From Sandaracinaceae bacterium (lineage in GTDB: Bacteria; Myxococcota_A; Polyangia; Polyangiales; Sandaracinaceae), in the NCBI GenBank assembly GCA_041918555.1, contig JAYRVK010001221.1, forward strand, positions 1-37,277: 37,277 bases of DNA. The letters run 5' to 3'. The stretch's first letter is position 1. The number at the start of each line of letters is the position of its first letter. Both the position numbers and the translations under genes were made by a program. The notes under the pieces were generated by a model that was not told the origin of the DNA, ran no database searches, and saw only the letters and a list, made by a program, of their open reading frames with translations. Below are positions 2-7,969 of the stretch, piece after piece.

Positions 2-325
2 ACCGCGGCGCGCGCCGAGCTAGCCCGGTTGCGCCCCCTCATCCCCGCCCCGCGCGCCTACCTAGATGAGCTCGACCAGGCGGGGCTCGCCCTCGCCCTC
101 GCCGATGCCGCGCTCGGCGCGGCCGTCCACGAGCTCGTGGCGCGCGCCGAGTCCGCCGCGGCGCTCGCCTCGGCTCGGGTACCCTACGCCGTCGCCCTCG
201 GCTGCGCCCCGGCGATCGACCGGACCGTGCGCATGCTCGACGCGCGGCGCAGTGGCCGCGACGGCTTCGCCCTCGTCGGCTGGGCCGTCGCCGAGTGCGC
301 CGCGGGGCGCTACGGGAGCGCGTGA
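2..325 (+). CDS. 3' end of an unidentified protein-coding gene; the ORF is open to the left window edge
   Basis: The frame has no stop from nt 2 to TGA at 323-325. Third-position GC is high. The Ala/Leu-rich sequence contains no motif I recognise. Confidence 0.35.
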   Translation, partial: TAARAELARLRPLIPAPRAYLDELDQAGLALALADAALGAAVHELVARAESAAALASARVPYAVALGCAPAIDRTVRMLDARRSGRDGFALVGWAVAECAAGRYGSA

Positions 326-397
326 GCATGCCCCGCCCCCCGCAAGACGACGTGCGATGCTTCACGGGTCCTGTGGAGCCTCCCGCGCGCGGTGCGC

Positions 398-474
398 TTT
401 ATAAAGATGGCGCAGAAATTCCGAAATCTGGCCCCGAGGTCGCTTTGAACTTGAACCGCCCGATTGAACCGCCC
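398..474 (+). promoter_or_regulatory. AT-rich patch (TTTATAAAG) followed by three direct TTGAAC repeats; candidate promoter/operator of the downstream operon
   Basis: TATAAA at 400-405 is the only AT-rich spot in about 1 kb. TTGAAC occurs at 445, 451 and 464, and the last two copies are the 11-mer TTGAACCGCCC. The repeats overlap the candidate TTG start codons. Confidence 0.3.
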
Positions 475-747
475 TGCTCCGCCCGGCTCGTCACGCGCAG
501 CGAGCTCGCGCGGATCGCGGGGGTGTCGCCGGCGGCGATCACCAAGGCCTGCAAGAACTCCCTCGCGCCGGCCGTGGTCGGCAAGCTCGTGGACCTTGAG
601 GCGACCTGCACCCTCTCCTACCTCGCGAAGTCCGGCGCCTCCCCGACGACGGTCCGACCGACGGAGGCCGATCTCGCCGCGCTGCGCGCGCAGCACGGGG
701 CGGTCTACCGCGTGTGCCTCCCCGATCTCGAGGAGGTCGTCCGATGA
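445..747 (+). CDS. Small helix-turn-helix DNA-binding protein (about 100 aa); the start is uncertain (TTG 445 or 451)
   Basis: It lies in the frame of ORF 295..747, downstream of the AT-rich patch. VTRSELARIAGVSPAAITKACKN is a typical HTH, with a layout reminiscent of Nu1/excisionase-like winged HTH proteins. Its stop overlaps the next start as ATGA at 744-747. Confidence 0.5.
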   Translation: MNLNRPIEPPCSARLVTRSELARIAGVSPAAITKACKNSLAPAVVGKLVDLEATCTLSYLAKSGASPTTVRPTEADLAALRAQHGAVYRVCLPDLEEVVR

Positions 748-1520
748 TCCCCTTCTGGGACGATGCGCCGGGGGCGTGGGAGACGCTGTCGCTCGGCGGG
801 GTGACGCTGCCGGGGCTCGCCTTCGTGTCGGGGCGCGTGGCTCGCAAGATGGACACGCGCTCGCGCGCGGGCGCGGACGGCGCGACGGTGCGCGATCGCG
901 GCTACGAGCCCGCGCAGATCGAGATCCACGTGAAGGTGTGGACCGCCGAGCAGCTTGAGCAGCTCGAGCAGATCCTCGCGACGATCCACCCGCGCAACGT
1001 CGTGCAGCCCACGACCCCGAATCAGGCGCGCGCCGAGCGCGACCTCGAGCGCGCGCGCCAGCGGGAGGCAGCGACGCGGACGGGACCCTTCGCCGGCGCG
1101 GTGGGCGAGACGGCGGGGGACTCTCTCGGCGCCTCGGCGTCAGCGGGCGCGGCCGTGGGCGACGCCTTCGCGGGCGCGAGCGCGACTGCGGCGCTCGAGG
1201 CGCAGGTGGCGACCGAACGCGCGCGGCCGCGGGCGCGAGCGACGCGGACGCCGCTCGACATCGCGCACCCCGCGACCGAGCTCCTCGGCATCCGCCGGGT
1301 CTATGTCACAGGGATCAGCGTCCCCGAGCTGCAGGGCGGCGAGTTCGTGACCACGATCAGCGCGCTCGAGTGGACCGAGGCGCCGCGCACCGCGCCGCCA
1401 CCGGCCGCGAACAGCGCGGGAGGGTCCTTCGCCGACGGGAACGACGCCTTCACGCGCCACCAAGCGGCGCAGCGACCGACCGCCGCGCCGCCCTCGCGCG
1501 TCCGGGGTCCGGGCTCATGA
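744..1520 (+). CDS. Phage-like protein; the N- and C-terminal segments resemble the Mu gpN 'DNA circulation' N-terminal domain, split by an Ala/Gly/Arg-rich low-complexity insert
   Basis: ATG at 744 is aa 11 of ORF 714..1520. LSLGGVTLPG...AGADGATVRDRGYEPAQIEIHVKVW...LEQIL and LDIAHPATELLGIRRVYVTGISVPE...FVTTISALEWTE fit my memory of PF07157 (FRGVxF..GRR..P..D.P.vEDLG..a..f.v.a.v...L..al...LvHP.lG...v.v......f.l.F.E). There are ATGA overlaps at both ends. Confidence 0.55.
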   Translation: MIPFWDDAPGAWETLSLGGVTLPGLAFVSGRVARKMDTRSRAGADGATVRDRGYEPAQIEIHVKVWTAEQLEQLEQILATIHPRNVVQPTTPNQARAERDLERARQREAATRTGPFAGAVGETAGDSLGASASAGAAVGDAFAGASATAALEAQVATERARPRARATRTPLDIAHPATELLGIRRVYVTGISVPELQGGEFVTTISALEWTEAPRTAPPPAANSAGGSFADGNDAFTRHQAAQRPTAAPPSRVRGPGS

Positions 1521-1846
1521 GCGAGCACGCCAAGGCGATCGCGCGGTTCGCGTGGATGGACGAGCGCGGCGTGAGGCAATCCGTCGAGGACCTCCCTGCC
1601 GCGGCGCGCGCGGAGCTCGCCGCTCTCGTAAGGGTCATCGAGGCGATCCCCGACGCGACCGAGCGGCGGCGCGTGTTGTTCGAGCGGATCGAGGCGGGGC
1701 CGACGCACGTGCGGATGGCGGCGCGCTACCTGCTCTGGCGTCAGCTGTACGGCGAGATCTGGCCGGTCGCCTTCGAGGAAGGGCCGCTCGCCATCGAGGA
1801 ACCGTCCCCGCAACTAAGCATGCGCAATCCAGGCGGCATGCAGTGA
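1517..1846 (+). CDS. Hypothetical 109-aa, probably helical protein
   Basis: ATG at 1517 (aa 50 of ORF 1370..1846) overlaps the upstream stop as ATGA. Its own stop overlaps the next start as GTGA. GC3 is high. Confidence 0.5.
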   Translation: MSEHAKAIARFAWMDERGVRQSVEDLPAAARAELAALVRVIEAIPDATERRRVLFERIEAGPTHVRMAARYLLWRQLYGEIWPVAFEEGPLAIEEPSPQLSMRNPGGMQ

Positions 1847-2484
1847 CGGCGCGCGACGGCACGGGCGCGTGGCGCGCCGAGCTCGATCCCCCGCGCGAGC
1901 GGCCGGAGTACACCGTGGGCGGGCATCTCGCGGCGCTCGGCGCCGCAGAAGCGTCGCCCGCCCCGACCGGACCGGCGCCCGCGATCCAGGTCCGCTCGTC
2001 CCCGCACCACGAGCCCGCGATCGTCATCGAGGCGGGGCCCTCGCCGGCCGCCGACGTGCGGCGCCACATCGTGCGCCGATGGCGGTCGACCGCGTGCACG
2101 CGCTGCGGCGGAACCTCGTGGGGTGCGCACGGGCCCGGGTGGCTCCGCCTGCCCGACGAGAACGGCGGCGCCGATGCGCCGGTCGTCGTGCTCTGGTGCA
2201 ACGGCTGCGGGGTGATGGAGTTCCTTCACGCCGCGGTGGTCGAGCACCGGCTGCTCGAGGCGGACCGCACGGGCGCGGATCCGACCCCGATCCCCGAGGC
2301 CCCGGCCGCGGCGCACGCCGAGGTCGAGCCCGCCCCGGCGCCAGCGTCGACGCGCGACGACGAGGGCCCTCCGAGCGCCGTCGCGGCGCTCCCTGGGGCG
2401 CAGTCGCTCGCGCCCGTCCTCGTCGTCGCCCTGGTCGTGCTCGGGCTCCTCGCGGCGGCGCTCAGCGCGGCGCTCGGGCCCTGA
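1843..2484 (+). CDS. Tail-anchored zinc-ribbon protein (CxxC...CxxC, Pro/Ala-rich linker, C-terminal TM helix)
   Basis: GTG at 1843 (aa 98 of ORF 1552..2484) overlaps the upstream stop as GTGA. It contains CTRCGG...WCNGCG and ends in the hydrophobic stretch LAPVLVVALVVLGLLAAALSAALGP. Confidence 0.5.
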   Translation: MTARDGTGAWRAELDPPRERPEYTVGGHLAALGAAEASPAPTGPAPAIQVRSSPHHEPAIVIEAGPSPAADVRRHIVRRWRSTACTRCGGTSWGAHGPGWLRLPDENGGADAPVVVLWCNGCGVMEFLHAAVVEHRLLEADRTGADPTPIPEAPAAAHAEVEPAPAPASTRDDEGPPSAVAALPGAQSLAPVLVVALVVLGLLAAALSAALGP

Positions 2485-2598
2485 GCTACGCGGCTCGCTT
2501 CCCCGGCAGCCTCGTCGGCGCCCCCCGCAGACACCCTATGAGGGCTCCGCGAGCGCGGGCCGCGGCGCCCTCTTCAACCGGCCCGCGAGGATACGAAC

Positions 2599-2847
2599 AT
2601 GCCGAGCAAGCCAAGCCCCTACGTCACCACCAGCAGCAACGAGCTCGCCGTCGCGATCCCCGTCGACGTCCCCCTGTACGGCGCGGGCGTCGTGCTCTTC
2701 TATGGCCACCCTCGGGCCCTCCAGGCCGTGCCTGGGCCGCATGCCGAGCCGCAGCGGAGGGCGCTTGAGCAAGGCCGCGCCATCCTCGAGGGTCGCAAGG
2801 ACGAGCTCGAGGCCATGCTCGCGGCAGCGCGGTCGGCGCGCCGGTAA
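2599..2847 (+). CDS. Hypothetical 82-aa protein
   Basis: ATG at 2599 is preceded by GAGGA eight nt upstream. GC3 is consistently high. I see no recognisable motif. Confidence 0.4.
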   Translation: MPSKPSPYVTTSSNELAVAIPVDVPLYGAGVVLFYGHPRALQAVPGPHAEPQRRALEQGRAILEGRKDELEAMLAAARSARR

Positions 2848-3010
2848 GCGCTCAGCGGGCGCCGTCGTCGGGTGCGCTCTCGGGCGCCTCGACGACGGAC
2901 GCCGGCTGCCGGCGCGCACTGCTGCGACGAGGTAGCGCTAAAAAGGCGCGTCGAGGCCCGGTAGGGAGTGGCCGGATGGAAGGCCGCGCTCTCGCTCTGC
3001 TCGCACGGTG

Positions 3011-3079: not shown

Positions 3080-3658
3080 GTGGCTGGGGACGAGCGCAAG
3101 GATCGCCTCCTAGCGGCTGCGTCGCAGGTACTGGACGCTGCCCCCAGGAAGCGCATGAACATCGTCAAGATCAACAAGGCGTTGTTCTACGCGGACATCC
3201 TCGCCTTGCGGGACCTCGGCAACACCATCACGCGGAACACGTTCCTGGCCCTCGATCAGGGCCCGGTGGTCGCGAAGTACGACAAGCACCTGGTGAAGGC
3301 GATGGAGAAGGCAGGGCTCGGCCGGCAGCTCAAGATCGGCAAGGCTAAGCCGCTCGAGCTGACCGCCGCCCCCATGCGGGGCCCCCTCACCGACGACGAG
3401 GTCAGGCTCCTTCGCATCGTCAGCGGCTCCCTCACCCACGCGACGTCGGCGGACGCATCCGCCTTCTCGCACGAGAACCACGCGTGGCGCCTCGCCTACG
3501 AGGCGGGCCTGGGCGCGGGTGGACCGCCGAAACCGGTGAACCTCGTACTCGCGATGCAGCAGATGGTGGACCCGGATCCGTGGCTCGCAACGACCGACGG
3601 AGCGACCGCCGCCGCGCTGGCTCGCGTGGGTGTGGACCCGGACGAGCAATGGGACTGA
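3080..3658 (+). CDS. Panacea-domain (DUF4065, SocA/GepA-like) antitoxin candidate; the start is uncertain (GTG 3080, or ATG 3155 with a better AGGAAG SD)
   Basis: LLAAASQVLDAAPRKRMNIVKINKALFYADILALRDLGNTITRNTFLALDQGPV matches the remembered DUF4065 signature (helix, then i.kLqKLLYyA, then G.pit...f.a...GPV). Its stop overlaps the downstream toxin-like gene by 10 nt. Confidence 0.7.
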   Translation: MAGDERKDRLLAAASQVLDAAPRKRMNIVKINKALFYADILALRDLGNTITRNTFLALDQGPVVAKYDKHLVKAMEKAGLGRQLKIGKAKPLELTAAPMRGPLTDDEVRLLRIVSGSLTHATSADASAFSHENHAWRLAYEAGLGAGGPPKPVNLVLAMQQMVDPDPWLATTDGATAAALARVGVDPDEQWD

Positions 3659-4032
3659 CCCCGGGTCAGATCAAGTGGCGTGTTCTGGACGCTGCGCAGA
3701 AGTGCCTCACCCCGATCCGGCGGATGAACGGGGCGGTCTACGAGGCCAGTCGGGACGCGCTGCAGCAGTTCCTCTGCGCCTACTTCGACTCGGACACGGA
3801 CTGCATCCACGGTATCGACGGGAGCGTGGCCTGCATCGGCGCCAACGGCTCGAGGAAGCACCTGAAGGTCAGGTGGGCCCTTCCCGGGGGCGGCAAGCGC
3901 GGCGGGCTGCGCCTCGCCGTGGCCGTTGACTGCGCGGCTCAGCAGGTCTGGATCGCTGGCGCGTGGGAACGGAAGAGCGACCCCGACGACGCCGACTTCG
4001 AACGGGCGCTGAACGACGTTCCCTCCGAGTAG
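3649..4032 (+). CDS. RelE/HigB-type (Gp49-like) toxin candidate, 127 aa
   Basis: ATG at 3649 is aa 56 of ORF 3484..4032. SRKHLKVRWALPGGGKRGGLRLAVAVDCAAQQVWIAGAWERKSDPDD resembles the RelE/HigB core 'RKlR....gKrGGyRviy.....i.ll.iy.K.e..d'. Confidence 0.65.
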   Translation: MGLTPGQIKWRVLDAAQKCLTPIRRMNGAVYEASRDALQQFLCAYFDSDTDCIHGIDGSVACIGANGSRKHLKVRWALPGGGKRGGLRLAVAVDCAAQQVWIAGAWERKSDPDDADFERALNDVPSE

Positions 4033-4159
4033 ATCCCCGGCTCGATCCCCGGCAACCTCTCCCGGATCGTCTCCCTGCGTCCCCGGTCGCCCTCGACACC
4101 GCCCGTGCTCGCCCCGAAAACGCCCATGGATCGGTACCGCGTCGCGATCGAAGGAGACC

Positions 4160-4201
4160 TTCCCAAGCTGAATGTCGACGGTTCGATCCCGTTCACCCGC
4201 T
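4160..4201 (+). other. tRNA-Gly(CCC) 3' half-like fragment (anticodon loop to discriminator); candidate attR scar, not an intact tRNA
   Basis: It reads TTCCCAA / GCTGA / ATGTC / GACGG-TTCGATC-CCGTT / CACCCGC / T. The T arm pairs 5/5, counting one G-U pair, and the T loop is canonical. There is no 5' acceptor strand (GCGGGTG), no D arm, and the upstream pentamer AGACC does not pair with GCTGA. Confidence 0.4.
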
Positions 4202-6343: not shown

Positions 6344-7969
6344 ATGACGACGCACACCGTCTTGAAATTCGGGGACGCGGCGCGGGCCCGGGTCCTCGCG
6401 GGCGCGACGCAGCTCGCCGACGCCGTCCGGCTCACCCTCGGTCCCCGCTCGCGCAGCGTGTTGATCGGCCAGAAGTGGGGCGCGCCCATCGTCTGCGACG
6501 ACGGCGTGACCATCGCGAAGAAGATCAAGCTCGAGGATCCCGAGGAGGACCTCGGCGCGCAGATCCTCCGCGAGGCCGCGGTCAAGACCGGCGATGCGGT
6601 CGGCGACGGGACGAGCACCGCGACGGTGCTCGCCCACGCGCTCTTCGCCGAGGGGCTGCGCAACGTCGTCGCGGGCGCGAGCGCGGTGGAGCTGCGCTTG
6701 GGGATGCAGGCGGGCCTGCGCGCGGTCAAGGACGCGCTCGCGGCGATGGCCAAGCCCGTCTCGACGCGGCTCGAGAAGGTGCAGGTCGCCACGGTGTCGG
6801 CCCACGGCGACGCGATCACCGGCGAGCTCGTCGCGGACGCGATCGAGCGCGTGGGCGGCGAGGGGGTCGTGACGGTCGAGGAGGCCAAGGCCACCGAGAC
6901 CACGGTCGAGGTCGTCGAGGGGATGCGCTTCGATCGCGGGTTCCTGTCACCGTACTTCATCACCTCGGCGGAGAAGATGGAGACGGTCCTCGAGCGGCCG
7001 TACCTGTTCCTCACCGATCGCAAGATCGCGGCGGTCCGCGACCTCGTGCCGCTGATGGAGGCGGTGGCGCAGACCGGTCGGCCGCTCCTCGTCATCGCGG
7101 AGGACGTGACGGGCGACGCGCTCGCGACGCTCGTGGTCAACAAGCTGCGCGGCGTGTTCTCGTCGGCGGCGGTGAAGGCCCCGGGCTTCGGGGATCGGCG
7201 CAAGGCGATGCTCTCGGACATCGCGATCCTCACCGGCGGCGAGGTCGTGAGCGAGGAGGTCGGCCTGCGCCTCGAGGACGTGACGATCGAGCACCTCGGG
7301 AGCGCGGAGCGCGTCGAGATCGATCGCGAGTCCACGACCATCGTCGGCGGCGCGGGGAAGCGCGACGCGATCCAGGCGCGCTGCACGGAGCTGCGCGCGC
7401 AGATCGAGGAGACGACCTCCGACTACGACAAGGAGAAGCTCGAGGAGCGGCTCGCCAAGCTCGCGGGCGGGGTCGCGGTGATCCGCGCGGGCGCGGCCAC
7501 CGAGGCCGAGATGAAGTCGAAGAAGGAGGCGATCGAGGACGCGATCAGCGCCACACAGGCGGCGATCGCCGAGGGGATCGTGGTCGGCGGCGGCGTGGCC
7601 CTCGCGCGGGCCGGCGAGGCGACGCGGCGCCTCGAGGGAGAGCTCTCGGGCGATCGGCTCACGGGGCTGCGGGTGCTCCAGCACGCCATGCAAGTTCCCT
7701 TGCGGCAGATCGCGAAGAACTCCGGCTTCGATCCGGGCGTGGTGGTCGATCGCGTGCTCGCTTCGGCGGACACCAAGCACGGCTTCGACGCGGCCGCGGG
7801 GCGCTACGGCGACCTCGTGTCGGCGGGGATCCTCGATCCGCACAAGGTCGTGCGCGTCGCGCTCGAGAACGCGGTGAGCGTCGCGACGACGCTGCTCGTG
7901 GCCGAGGCGACGATGACGGAGATCGAGGAGGAGGCGCCGAGCGCGCCCCACGAGGCGCCGAGCTTCTGA
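6344..7969 (+). CDS. groEL: Chaperonin GroEL (Cpn60) paralogue with no adjacent groES
   Basis: ATG at 6344 is aa 171 of ORF 5834..7969, preceded by [48 protein letters not shown] and [14 protein letters not shown] are canonical. The C-terminus is [14 protein letters not shown] instead of a GGM repeat. Confidence 0.95.

Follow-up and report, generated by a model that had tools for sequence, protein, structure and literature searches.

Introduction

In cos phages, the small terminase (TerS) binds repeated sites; the comparison with cosB made below rests on lambda. HK97 gp15 is an example of a moron in a prophage tail operon, a membrane protein for superinfection exclusion. In phage Mu, gp43 (N) is the tail-tube initiator, and its C-terminal domain is rich in helices and contains LysM (PMC11915804). 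Myxococcus phage Mx4 is classified as Mu-like (PMC8530038). In the Mx4 genome, p59, a putative tape-measure gene, is followed by p60 and then by baseplate genes.

Here we compare these systems with a cassette of four genes (g1–g4) located close to the start of a 37,277-nt stretch of DNA, which is referred to as the window. A sequence-only reading of the window had proposed that the cassette is an undescribed four-gene system whose products form one complex. Our analysis favours another origin. With a probability of about 0.75, g1–g4 come from the virion operon of a phage in an uncultured Mu/Mx4-like family and were left behind as pieces where a decayed prophage ends. The candidate system would then be removed as a false lead, consisting of prophage debris.

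Layout of the cassette

The four ORFs, the three 4-nt overlaps between them and the three TTGAAC repeats described in the sequence-only reading are all present. The features upstream of and within the cassette are as follows.

2–325, plus strand: 3′ end of orf0, which continues past the window start (third-position GC, 0.93)
363–470, plus strand: cos-like terS leader, recognised by alignment to the leaders of relatives; it contains the 13-mer ACGGGTCCTGTGG (364–376), the AT-rich stretch GCGCTTTATAAAG (394–406) and three TTGAAC(C) repeats
445–747, plus strand: g1, apparent remnant of a lambda-type TerS with the N-terminal HTH only, 100 aa, by homology to the TerS of L021 and L011
744–1520, plus strand: g2, predicted tail-tube initiator or Dit-like baseplate protein, 258 aa, from gene position in relatives, profiles and predicted fold
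1517–1846, plus strand: g3, putative tail-operon accessory protein, 109 aa, with homologues directly 3′ of the g2 homologues in L014 and L015
1843–2484, plus strand: g4, 213 aa, with a CxxC..CxxC motif, a TM helix at the C-terminus and a single homologue, in L014

The third-position GC contents of g1–g4 are 0.92, 0.92, 0.89 and 0.93, respectively, and those of the second positions are 0.49–0.63; this pattern is a strong coding signal. The ORFs are uninterrupted and in register, and they are preceded by good Shine-Dalgarno sequences. Neither a sigma-70 promoter nor a terminator 3′ of g4 was found by our scans. One sigma-54-like candidate, TGGCGC-N5-TT at 408–420, was rejected, as the GC of the −12 element is missing.

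The overlaps are ATGA (744–747), ATGA (1517–1520) and GTGA (1843–1846). They had been taken as a sign of stoichiometric co-translation, an argument that loses its ground among the relatives: the gap between g3 and g4 is 26 nt in L014 and that between g1 and g2 is 52 nt in L011. The tight overlaps are thus not conserved.

The g1 gene and its leader

Residues 14–69 of g1 are 68% identical to residues 3–58 of the L021 TerS. The L021 protein is 233 residues in length, and downstream of its gene lie a gpA-type TerL (PF05876/PF20454) and a lambda-family portal (PF05136). Compared to the L011 protein (222 aa), g1 is 53% identical over 64 aa, and residues 2–65 of L011 alone align. The full-length L011 protein has counterparts 5′ of terL, at the TerS position, in 39 phage records; coverage is no less than 80% in 37 of these. 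The phrog_57 profile, terminase small subunit, also matches g1 (E 1.7e-5); the full-length TerS has no meaningful match in a PDB sequence search.

The full-length relatives are ∼210–235 aa in size, versus 100 aa for g1. The C-terminal ∼150 aa of TerS were not found in any frame at the g1 locus, and the window contains no terL homologue anywhere, the gene after g1 being g2. The start codon has been lost as well. The ATG of the relatives' terS is replaced by TCC in g1, and the in-frame starts that are left are TTG codons inside the repeats; the gene caller picked ATG 328, and the position of the start codon is uncertain. Of the ∼100-aa HTH protein starting inside the repeats that had been described earlier, the HTH and the TTG codons therefore stand, whereas the start is uncertain and the protein appears to be a remnant of terS. 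Judged by these alignments, g1 is what is left of the N-terminal domain of a TerS, together with the conserved leader of that gene, and not a dedicated regulator.

Like the lambda-type TerS, which occupies the Nu1 position, g1 has an N-terminal HTH, homologous to that of the TerS preceding gpA-type TerL and lambda-family portal. Different from it, g1 retains ∼65 conserved residues and lacks the oligomerisation/TerL-binding domain, the native start codon and terL. We also considered whether the tail of g1 is a TerS C-terminus that survived a deletion inside the gene; aligned as DNA, the two scored no better than shuffles, and the source of positions 672–722 could not be traced by comparison.

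The three repeats are located at 445–450, 451–457 and 464–470. The whole window has six TTGAAC copies, with 1.8 expected, and three of the six sit in the g1 leader; this clustering is non-random. The leader (363–470) aligns with the leader of a full-length terS in the IMG/VR contig L022 and with L007, and its repeats only align with L011. In both L021 and L022, three copies of TTGAACC lie just 5′ of the terS ATG; L011 has three copies of GTGAACCT in their place. The L021 contig starts at the AT-rich stretch of the leader. By analogy to lambda cosB, three short direct repeats just 5′ of the g1 start resemble the repeated TerS sites of cos phages, and the leader with its repeats is a putative cos or TerS-binding site. 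A cos-proximal leader with TTGAACC repeats can thus be proposed for an uncultured phage family that likely infects Myxococcota.

The g2 gene

Homologues of g2 are found 3′ of a tape-measure gene in eight lineages (L002, L003/4/5, L006, L008, L009, L014, L015 and Mx4). In seven of the eight, the homologue follows the tape-measure gene directly; one 115-aa gene lies between them in L003–5. Hub or baseplate genes are present 3′ of the homologue in five of the eight (L002, L003/4, L006, L009 and Mx4). In the window, the gene before g2 is a terS fragment, and neither a hub nor a wedge gene comes after it. The lack of tail partners pointed out in the sequence-only reading was confirmed for the whole window: no homologue of tape-measure protein, hub, gp25-like wedge, baseplate J, sheath or capsid was detected in the 37 kb.

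A profile search with g2 collected 1591 relatives (representatives, E ≤ 1e-3). Scans of Pfam, PHROG, NCBIfam and PADLOC gave nothing significant for g2 itself, and the PDB sequence search gave no meaningful match. PF07157, which had been suggested as the family to search, does not match g2 even at E ≤ 1. Among 51 relatives detected by the profile, five have weak PF07157 matches (best E 0.0014, below the gathering threshold) and two match DUF6046. An alignment scan found no match in GTDB genomes or IMG/VR, and two short contigs in metagenomes.

The AF2 model of g2 has a pLDDT of 68, and both conserved halves contribute beta strands. Baseplate chains of phages 7-7-1, Milano, XM1 and Mu head its list of PDB matches, at E values of only 0.03–0.1; in BFVD, where E values go down to 1e-6, Dit-like, DUF6046 and DNA-circulation N-terminal proteins are among the matches. 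The linker between the conserved halves is ∼75 aa in length, with a 21-aa extra stretch in the window copy. It had been described as low complexity splitting the protein; an insertion is indeed present between the halves, but it is a variable, family-wide one and is predicted to form a helical hairpin. After residue ∼215, the model is of low confidence and the sequence is Pro/Ala-rich.

The relationship to Mu gpN that was proposed earlier is borne out remotely, on the basis of relatives, fold and gene position. Like Mu gp43/N (PF07157, DNA_circ_N), the g2 relatives occupy the slot after the tape measure and, in the five lineages named above, before hub or baseplate genes, and the predicted tube-like beta domain of g2 has its best structural matches, weak ones in PDB, among baseplate and tube proteins. 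Different from the matched Mu baseplate chains, which are 419 and 446 aa in size, g2 is 258 aa. It has no recognisable helix-rich C-terminal domain, and a search for LysM gave no match; its tube-like domain is split by the variable helical hairpin, and the tail partners are absent from the window.

The sole match to g2 in a cultured phage is Mx4 p60, which is annotated as a hypothetical protein (251 aa). Their N-terminal domains are 34% identical (E 2e-7), and p60 lies in the same slot as the g2 relatives, between p59 and the baseplate genes. The relationship is distant, and p60 has no g1-, g3- or g4-like neighbours. A sizeable family without a Pfam entry, comprising the 1591 representatives and including Mx4 p60, may thus gain the label of tail-tube initiator.

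The window copy of g2 keeps all residues that are invariant in the close family. Its pairwise dN/dS is 0.3–0.45, no higher than between phage-borne copies, a comparison that the extreme GC3 bias makes not decisive. Intact ORFs in g1–g4, the kept invariant residues and the unraised dN/dS are features that speak against a remnant.

The g3 and g4 genes

In a word-indexed protein search, g3 and g4 matched only themselves and looked like orphans; BLAST against the contig ORFs found homologues in L014 and L015, both metagenomic contigs. In L014, g2-g3-g4 follow the tape-measure gene, and in L015 g2-g3 likewise. The g3 protein is 60% identical to its L014 homologue (E 5e-44) and 51% identical to that of L015, and the C-terminus, MRNPGGMQ, is invariant; g3 has no family, phage-database or PDB match. 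The sole g4 homologue is located 3′ of the g3 homologue in L014. The TM helix is conserved, as is the cysteine core (47% identity over 105 aa); DNA homology to L014 ends 14 nt beyond the g4 stop codon. No baseplate genes are present in L014 within ∼770 nt after g4.

The cysteine pairs of g4 are C85/C88 and C119/C122, and its one strongly hydrophobic segment spans residues 189–207, in agreement with the CxxC..CxxC protein with a single C-terminal TM helix described in the sequence-only reading. Searches of Pfam, PHROG, NCBIfam, PADLOC and PDB sequences gave nothing significant for g4, IMG/VR scans with g3 and g4 gave no match, and the AF2 single-sequence model of g4 is poor (pLDDT 50). Frameshifted remains of a hub gene were considered for both genes and rejected, as no similarity was seen in any frame.

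Judged by where their homologues occur, g3 and g4 are lineage-specific accessory genes, and g4 is probably a non-virion protein. Like HK97 gp15-like morons, g4 is small and membrane-anchored, lies among the tail genes of temperate-phage-like elements and is patchy in close relatives. Different from HK97 gp15, with which it shares neither sequence nor fold similarity, no independent promoter is evident for g4.

Gene order in the relatives

Homologues of g2 occur in ten other distinct lineages. Two of them (L007 and L010–13) have g1 and g2, L014 has g2, g3 and g4, and L015 has g2 and g3. None of the ten has all four genes, which was the outcome of the co-occurrence search suggested for the cassette; the claim of a four-gene system fails because g1–g4 were never found together in any other locus. 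The window reaches only 444 nt 5′ of g1, short of the stretch where the sequence-only reading had asked for tape-measure and baseplate genes as a refutation; the relatives nevertheless place the cassette genes in a standard morphogenesis region.

IMG/VR contigs with a g1-type terS carry S49, HDPD and capsid genes whose identity to the L002 and L003 counterparts reaches 54%, and L002 and L003 also carry sheath, tape-measure and g2 genes. We infer from these similarities that the g1-type terS and g2 stem from one phage family. Given this link, terS and g2 are estimated to lie ∼6.2 + 7.5 kb (about 14 kb) from each other within a single late region of an intact genome, versus 299 nt in the window. 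A first tblastx run gave uninformative noise in this high-GC DNA.

In L010–13, g2 comes directly after a full-length terS and precedes two small genes and a hub gene; in L007, a truncated terS is followed by g2. With the window included, three lineages have terS next to g2, and the junction is not obviously a one-off accident. The occurrence of this junction in L010–13 and L007, and the L014 contig, which likewise shows no baseplate genes past g4, fit less well with a remnant.

The L010–13 arrangement would also suit a prophage that still functions and has its genes in an unusual order, the other structural genes being located 5′ of the window. The window opens only 444 nt upstream of g1, further upstream DNA lies beyond it, and structural genes could in principle be located there. 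The gene directly upstream, orf0, probably belongs to the same integrated element as g1–g4. It has no Pfam, PHROG, NCBIfam, PADLOC or phage-database match; comparison ruled out a tape-measure protein, and orf0 is no recognisable phage protein either. A functional prophage is further at odds with a terS that has lost its start codon, has no C-terminal domain and is not followed by terL. Between g4 and the tRNA scar described below, there are no hub, wedge or fibre genes, the genes that come after g2 where the contigs reach far enough. We regard this explanation as improbable.

The right edge of the element

Downstream of g4, the following features were identified.

2599–2847, plus strand: 82-aa ORF, treated as cargo of the element (third-position GC, 0.86)
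3128–4032, plus strand: gene for a Panacea-domain antitoxin (PF13274, E 4.9e-11), ending at 3658, and an overlapping partner gene (3649–4032)
4159–4201, plus strand: 43-nt 3′ fragment of tRNA-Gly(CCC), an attR-like scar, 100% identical to intact genes

The 82-aa ORF has no homologues and no family matches. The partner gene at 3649–4032, presumed to encode the toxin, gives weak matches only, and the local GC content falls to 0.68. The fragment at 4159–4201 is identical to the 3′ end of the intact tRNA-Gly(CCC) in L017, a Sandaracinaceae MAG, and in L018; no intact tRNA was found in the window by ARAGORN or Rfam. The right boundary of the integrated element is thereby set at this fragment, and the earlier placement of the cassette next to a toxin-antitoxin pair at the edge of such an element is upheld. 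The remainder of the window contains ordinary cellular genes.

Integration at a tRNA gene is also compatible with a phage satellite or hijacker, which would carry a helper-type cos, a TerS DNA-binding domain and a tail adaptor and be packaged by a helper of the L021/L003 family. The conservation of the cos-like leader with bona fide viral contigs and the adjacency of terS and g2 in three lineages agree with such an element. However, integrase, replication and capsid-redirecting genes are not visible, L007 appears scrambled rather than streamlined, and a tube initiator alone has no known satellite function; a satellite is very unlikely.

The toxin-antitoxin pair adjoining the cassette at the prophage edge bears on another possibility, namely that a cryptic prophage has kept or co-opted the cassette as an anti-phage or superinfection-exclusion module. 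The TerS HTH could occupy the cos repeats of related incoming phages, free tube initiator could poison their tail assembly, and g4, as a Zn-ribbon protein anchored in the membrane, could block DNA entry, as tail-operon morons do. Such a role would account for the intact ORFs with good Shine-Dalgarno sequences, the absence of excess dN/dS in the window copy, the second terS-fragment/g2 junction in L007, the conserved cos-like leader and the conserved membrane anchor of g4, which is unusual for a virion protein. Defence profiles do not bear out the idea of anti-phage cargo in the sequence-only reading, however. In PADLOC-DB v2, g1 matches mad1 (HTH, E 7e-5) and g3 matches Cas11a (E 0.003, 37 residues), both generic or weak, and g2 and g4 have no match. 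Moreover, g1–g4 never occur together elsewhere, g3 and g4 are found only in tail operons, downstream of a tape-measure gene, g1 no longer has its native start codon, and chance keeps ORFs open in 74% GC DNA. We consider an exclusion module unlikely.

Proposed origin of the cassette

Under the favoured reading, leftover virion-operon pieces of a decayed prophage, the source phage would have been temperate, Mu/Mx4-like and contractile-tailed, with a tRNA-Gly(CCC) gene of a high-GC, probably Myxococcota, genome as its integration site. In the intact relatives, the gene order starts with a putative cos site with TTGAACC repeats, terS, gpA-type terL, lambda-family portal, S49 protease and decoration protein. 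Capsid, sheath, tube, tape measure, the g2 tube initiator and optional small genes including g3 and g4 come next, and hub, gp25-like wedge and baseplate J follow. In an intact phage of this kind, the TerS HTH would bind the repeats to start packaging, and g2 would form a hexameric ring on the complex of hub and tape measure and nucleate the tail tube. The g3 and g4 genes would be carried in the operon as accessory genes, with g4 anchored in the membrane.

A deletion of ∼14 kb may then have joined the cos-like leader and the initial ∼75 codons of terS (g1) to the leader of g2. The hub, wedge and fibre genes after g4 would have been lost and replaced by the 82-aa ORF, the Panacea toxin-antitoxin pair and the attR scar. 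The cassette presumably no longer builds anything.

The fused cassette unites a cos-like site, a TerS DNA-binding fragment, a free tube initiator and the membrane Zn-ribbon protein g4. That it persists in the cryptic prophages of several lineages by interfering with related incoming phages, at the stage of packaging, of tail assembly or of DNA entry, seems to us distinctly unlikely. If it did, it would be a defence module made of dominant-negative virion-assembly parts. The recurrent junction between terS and the tube-initiator gene is flagged here as a feature of these loci.

Features of the four-gene cluster

The window has a GC content of ∼74%, and the cluster consists of four ORFs.

445–747, + strand, ORF g1
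744–1520, + strand, ORF g2
1517–1846, + strand, ORF g3
1843–2484, + strand, ORF g4

The GC content of g1–g4 is 0.89–0.93 at the third codon position and lower, 0.49–0.63, at the second, indicating that all four are real coding frames. The 4-nt overlaps ATGA, ATGA and GTGA are located where the sequence-only reading had placed them; the g1/g2 and g3/g4 overlaps are not kept in relatives. The TTGAAC repeats that it described at the g1 start are present in three copies within 445–469; the 37-kb window has only three more, against 1.8 copies expected in total. In g4, the proposed CxxC...CxxC motif and C-terminal helix correspond to C85/88, C119/122 and a single strongly hydrophobic C-terminal segment. 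One 2798-nt contig from a different sample (L001) is identical to window 103–2900.

g2 probably encodes a tail-tube initiator

Direct family scans gave no match for g2, and only eight close homologues were present in the large protein collection. In the comparison contigs L002, L003/4/5, L006, L008, L009, L014 and L015, the g2 homologue follows the tape-measure gene (PF20155); its start abuts or overlaps the end of that gene, except in L003–5, where one 115-aa gene lies in between. In the long contigs it is part of a complete contractile-tail module with the order S49 protease, decoration protein, Phage_cap_E capsid, DUF2586 sheath, tape measure, g2 homologue, hub, gp25-like wedge and Baseplate_J. 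The sole cultured match to g2 is Myxococcus phage Mx4 p60, whose gene is likewise flanked by the putative tape-measure gene p59 and the baseplate genes. Mx4 is described as a Mu-like myovirus (PMC8530038). DNA homology between the window and L003 sets in 21 nt ahead of the g2 ATG, with 82% nucleotide identity over 720 nt.

The g2-family profile search retrieved 1591 representatives at E ≤ 1e-3. Most of them are 170–270 aa in size and match in two separate blocks, which makes the split architecture characteristic of the family. Among 51 sampled members, five weakly matched PF07157 (DNA_circ_N), two matched DUF6046, and one matched a PHROG 'baseplate hub'. The AF2 model of g2 (pLDDT 68) contains a beta domain to which the two conserved halves both contribute; a helical hairpin separates them. 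In the PDB, the model most resembles baseplate chains of phages 7-7-1, Milano, XM1 and Mu (E 0.03–0.1); among its top hits in BFVD (to E 1e-6) are Dit-like, DUF6046 and 'DNA circulation, N-terminal' proteins. For phage Mu, structural work showed gp43 (N) to be the tube initiator (PMC11915804). Taken together, gene position, family profile, fold matches and the role of Mu gp43 indicate that the suggested resemblance to Mu gpN is right at superfamily level; g2 itself gives no significant match to Pfam PF07157. g2 is probably a tail-tube initiator, and this uncurated family gains a functional label as a by-product.

g1 encodes a truncated small terminase

g1 is a truncated small terminase (TerS) behind its conserved cos-like leader (363–470). 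Homologues of g1 are located upstream of g2 homologues in L007 (113 aa) and L010–L013 (222 aa, read from the ATG at L011:82). In 39 phage records, the product of the gene directly before the large terminase gene matches the whole of the 222-aa L011 protein; in AeroV_348, this gene carries the annotation small terminase. An IMG/VR scan identified the g1-type HTH in nine viral contigs, five of which have the gene ∼90–100 nt from the contig end. Residues 14–69 of g1 share 68% identity with one 233-aa protein of L021, downstream of which lie genes for gpA-type TerL (PF05876 and PF20454) and lambda-family portal (PF05136). The window and L007 keep only the first ∼65 TerS residues; the remaining ∼150 aa were not found in any frame of either.

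Within the leader, the 13-mer ACGGGTCCTGTGG (window 364–376) is common to L007 and L022, and the AT-rich stretch at 394–406 corresponds to the point at which contig L021 starts. In L021, L022 and L011, three copies of (T/G)TGAACC are located directly upstream of the start codon. Their ATG aligns with TCC in the window, where the only possible g1 starts are TTG codons within the repeats. Most simply, we infer that these are putative TerS recognition repeats (cosB-like) of the phage family; the description of cos-proximal repeats in this uncultured phage group is a second by-product.

The segment separating the AT-rich stretch from the repeats contains a conserved imperfect palindrome, ATGGCGC(A/G)(G/C)AA(A/T)TT (window 407–420, L007 3872–3885, L011 11–24). 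In all three loci it opens a mini-ORF of 13–18 codons, for which a TGAAC repeat supplies the TGA stop. The palindrome may be a nicking or operator site, or coincidental.

g3 and g4 are accessory genes

Judged by their uneven presence beside g2 homologues in the tail operons of L014 and L015, g3 and g4 are patchily distributed accessory genes of the g2 tail operon. The L014 order is tape-measure C-terminus, g2 homologue, g3 homologue (60% identity) and g4 homologue (47% identity over the Cys core, TM helix conserved); DNA homology to the window ends 14 nt beyond the stop codon of g4. In L015, the tape-measure gene is followed by the homologues of g2 and g3 (the latter with 51% identity) and by one 113-aa gene, whose L003 equivalent is located before g2. 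For both g3 and g4, a word-indexed search across 5.8 billion proteins gave nothing but the query. Their homologues, found by BLAST against Logan contigs fetched through g2, were missed by that tool, so its null result is no proof of orphan status. No clue to the function of g3 or g4 came from family, phage-database or PDB-sequence searches, nor from any usable structural evidence.

All three copies of g3 (window 1819–1846, L014 and L015) end in the same eight residues, MRNPGGMQ. In the window, the DNA at this point has a pair of GCATGC palindromes spaced 13 nt apart.

The edge of the element

Three features lie beyond g4.

2599–2847, 82-aa ORF between g4 and the toxin-antitoxin pair, GC3 0.86
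3128–4032, putative toxin-antitoxin pair
4159–4201, exact 43-nt 3′ fragment of tRNA-Gly(CCC)

The 82-aa ORF has no homologue and no family match in any search. The neighbouring toxin-antitoxin pair, already recognized from sequence, comprises a Panacea-domain antitoxin (PF13274, E 4.9e-11) and a partner gene overlapping it by 10 nt, for which only weak matches were obtained (RelE 0.086; phrog_5869 4e-4); GC falls to 0.68 here. It may be a Panacea pair with an uncharacterised toxin. The tRNA fragment extends from the anticodon loop to the acceptor end, without the 5′ half, and is identical to intact genes in a Sandaracinaceae MAG (L017) and a Phycisphaerae MAG (L018); no intact tRNA was found in the window. 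The fragment looks like an attR scar, the right end of a tRNA-integrated element, and a Myxococcota host would fit the Sandaracinaceae match.

At the extreme end of L014 (∼2585–2600), ∼750 nt after the g4 homologue, one T-arm-like motif, GGGGGTTCGAATCC, is present. ARAGORN made no tRNA call there; it may mark another tRNA-proximal element edge. L002, a 25-kb phage contig, has a tRNA-Met gene (7054–7126) inside its tail module, between tube-region genes and DUF6848.

Origin of the cluster

Viral contigs with g1-type terS continue with S49, HDPD and capsid genes, showing up to 54% identity to their counterparts in L002 and L003, two contigs that also have sheath, tape-measure and g2 genes; identity to the HDPD of L007 is 73%. 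Joining the two maps places terS and g2 ∼14 kb apart in the intact genome; in the window, the g1 and g2 starts are 299 nt apart. Homologues of tape-measure, hub, gp25-like, baseplate-J, sheath and capsid proteins were found nowhere in the window, whose other 33 kb encodes ordinary cellular proteins, including GroEL-like chaperonin, M36 protease, penicillin amidase, Usp and HMG-CoA reductase. With a probability of roughly three in four, the cluster is a cryptic prophage remnant; the element would be a decayed tRNA-integrated prophage of a Mu/Mx4-like family. One deletion would have brought the tube-initiator gene and the two accessory genes up against what is left of terS, its first third with the cos-like leader, and a second loss would have taken out the hub, wedge and fibre genes; the 82-aa ORF and the Panacea pair would then be cargo, followed by the attR scar.

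Against pure debris, all four ORFs are intact, and dN/dS of the window copy is not raised (0.3–0.45 for g2, although GC3-biased). Junctions of terS and g2 also occur in L007 and L010–L013, and L014 has no baseplate genes directly after g4 either. Owing to these observations, three other explanations stay alive, each at low probability: that the genes were co-opted as an interference or exclusion cassette, that they belong to a functional prophage of unusual gene order, or that the element is satellite-like.

The non-canonical terS/g2 junction recurs in L010–L013, four contigs from runs SRR26786796, SRR26786797, SRR26786804 and SRR26786805, and resembles that of the window. In these, the gene for full-length TerS (222 aa) leads straight into the tube-initiator gene; two small genes, one encoding an N-terminal TM helix, and the hub gene come next, and terL is absent. 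L007 (1–5587) is a scrambled phage-like contig and appears to be another decayed relative. It contains, in order, genes for DnaB helicase, RHH protein, head-decoration protein (73% identical to that of L021) and coiled-coil protein, the cos-like leader, truncated terS, tube initiator, a 53-aa ORF and Baseplate_J, without hub or gp25-like gene.
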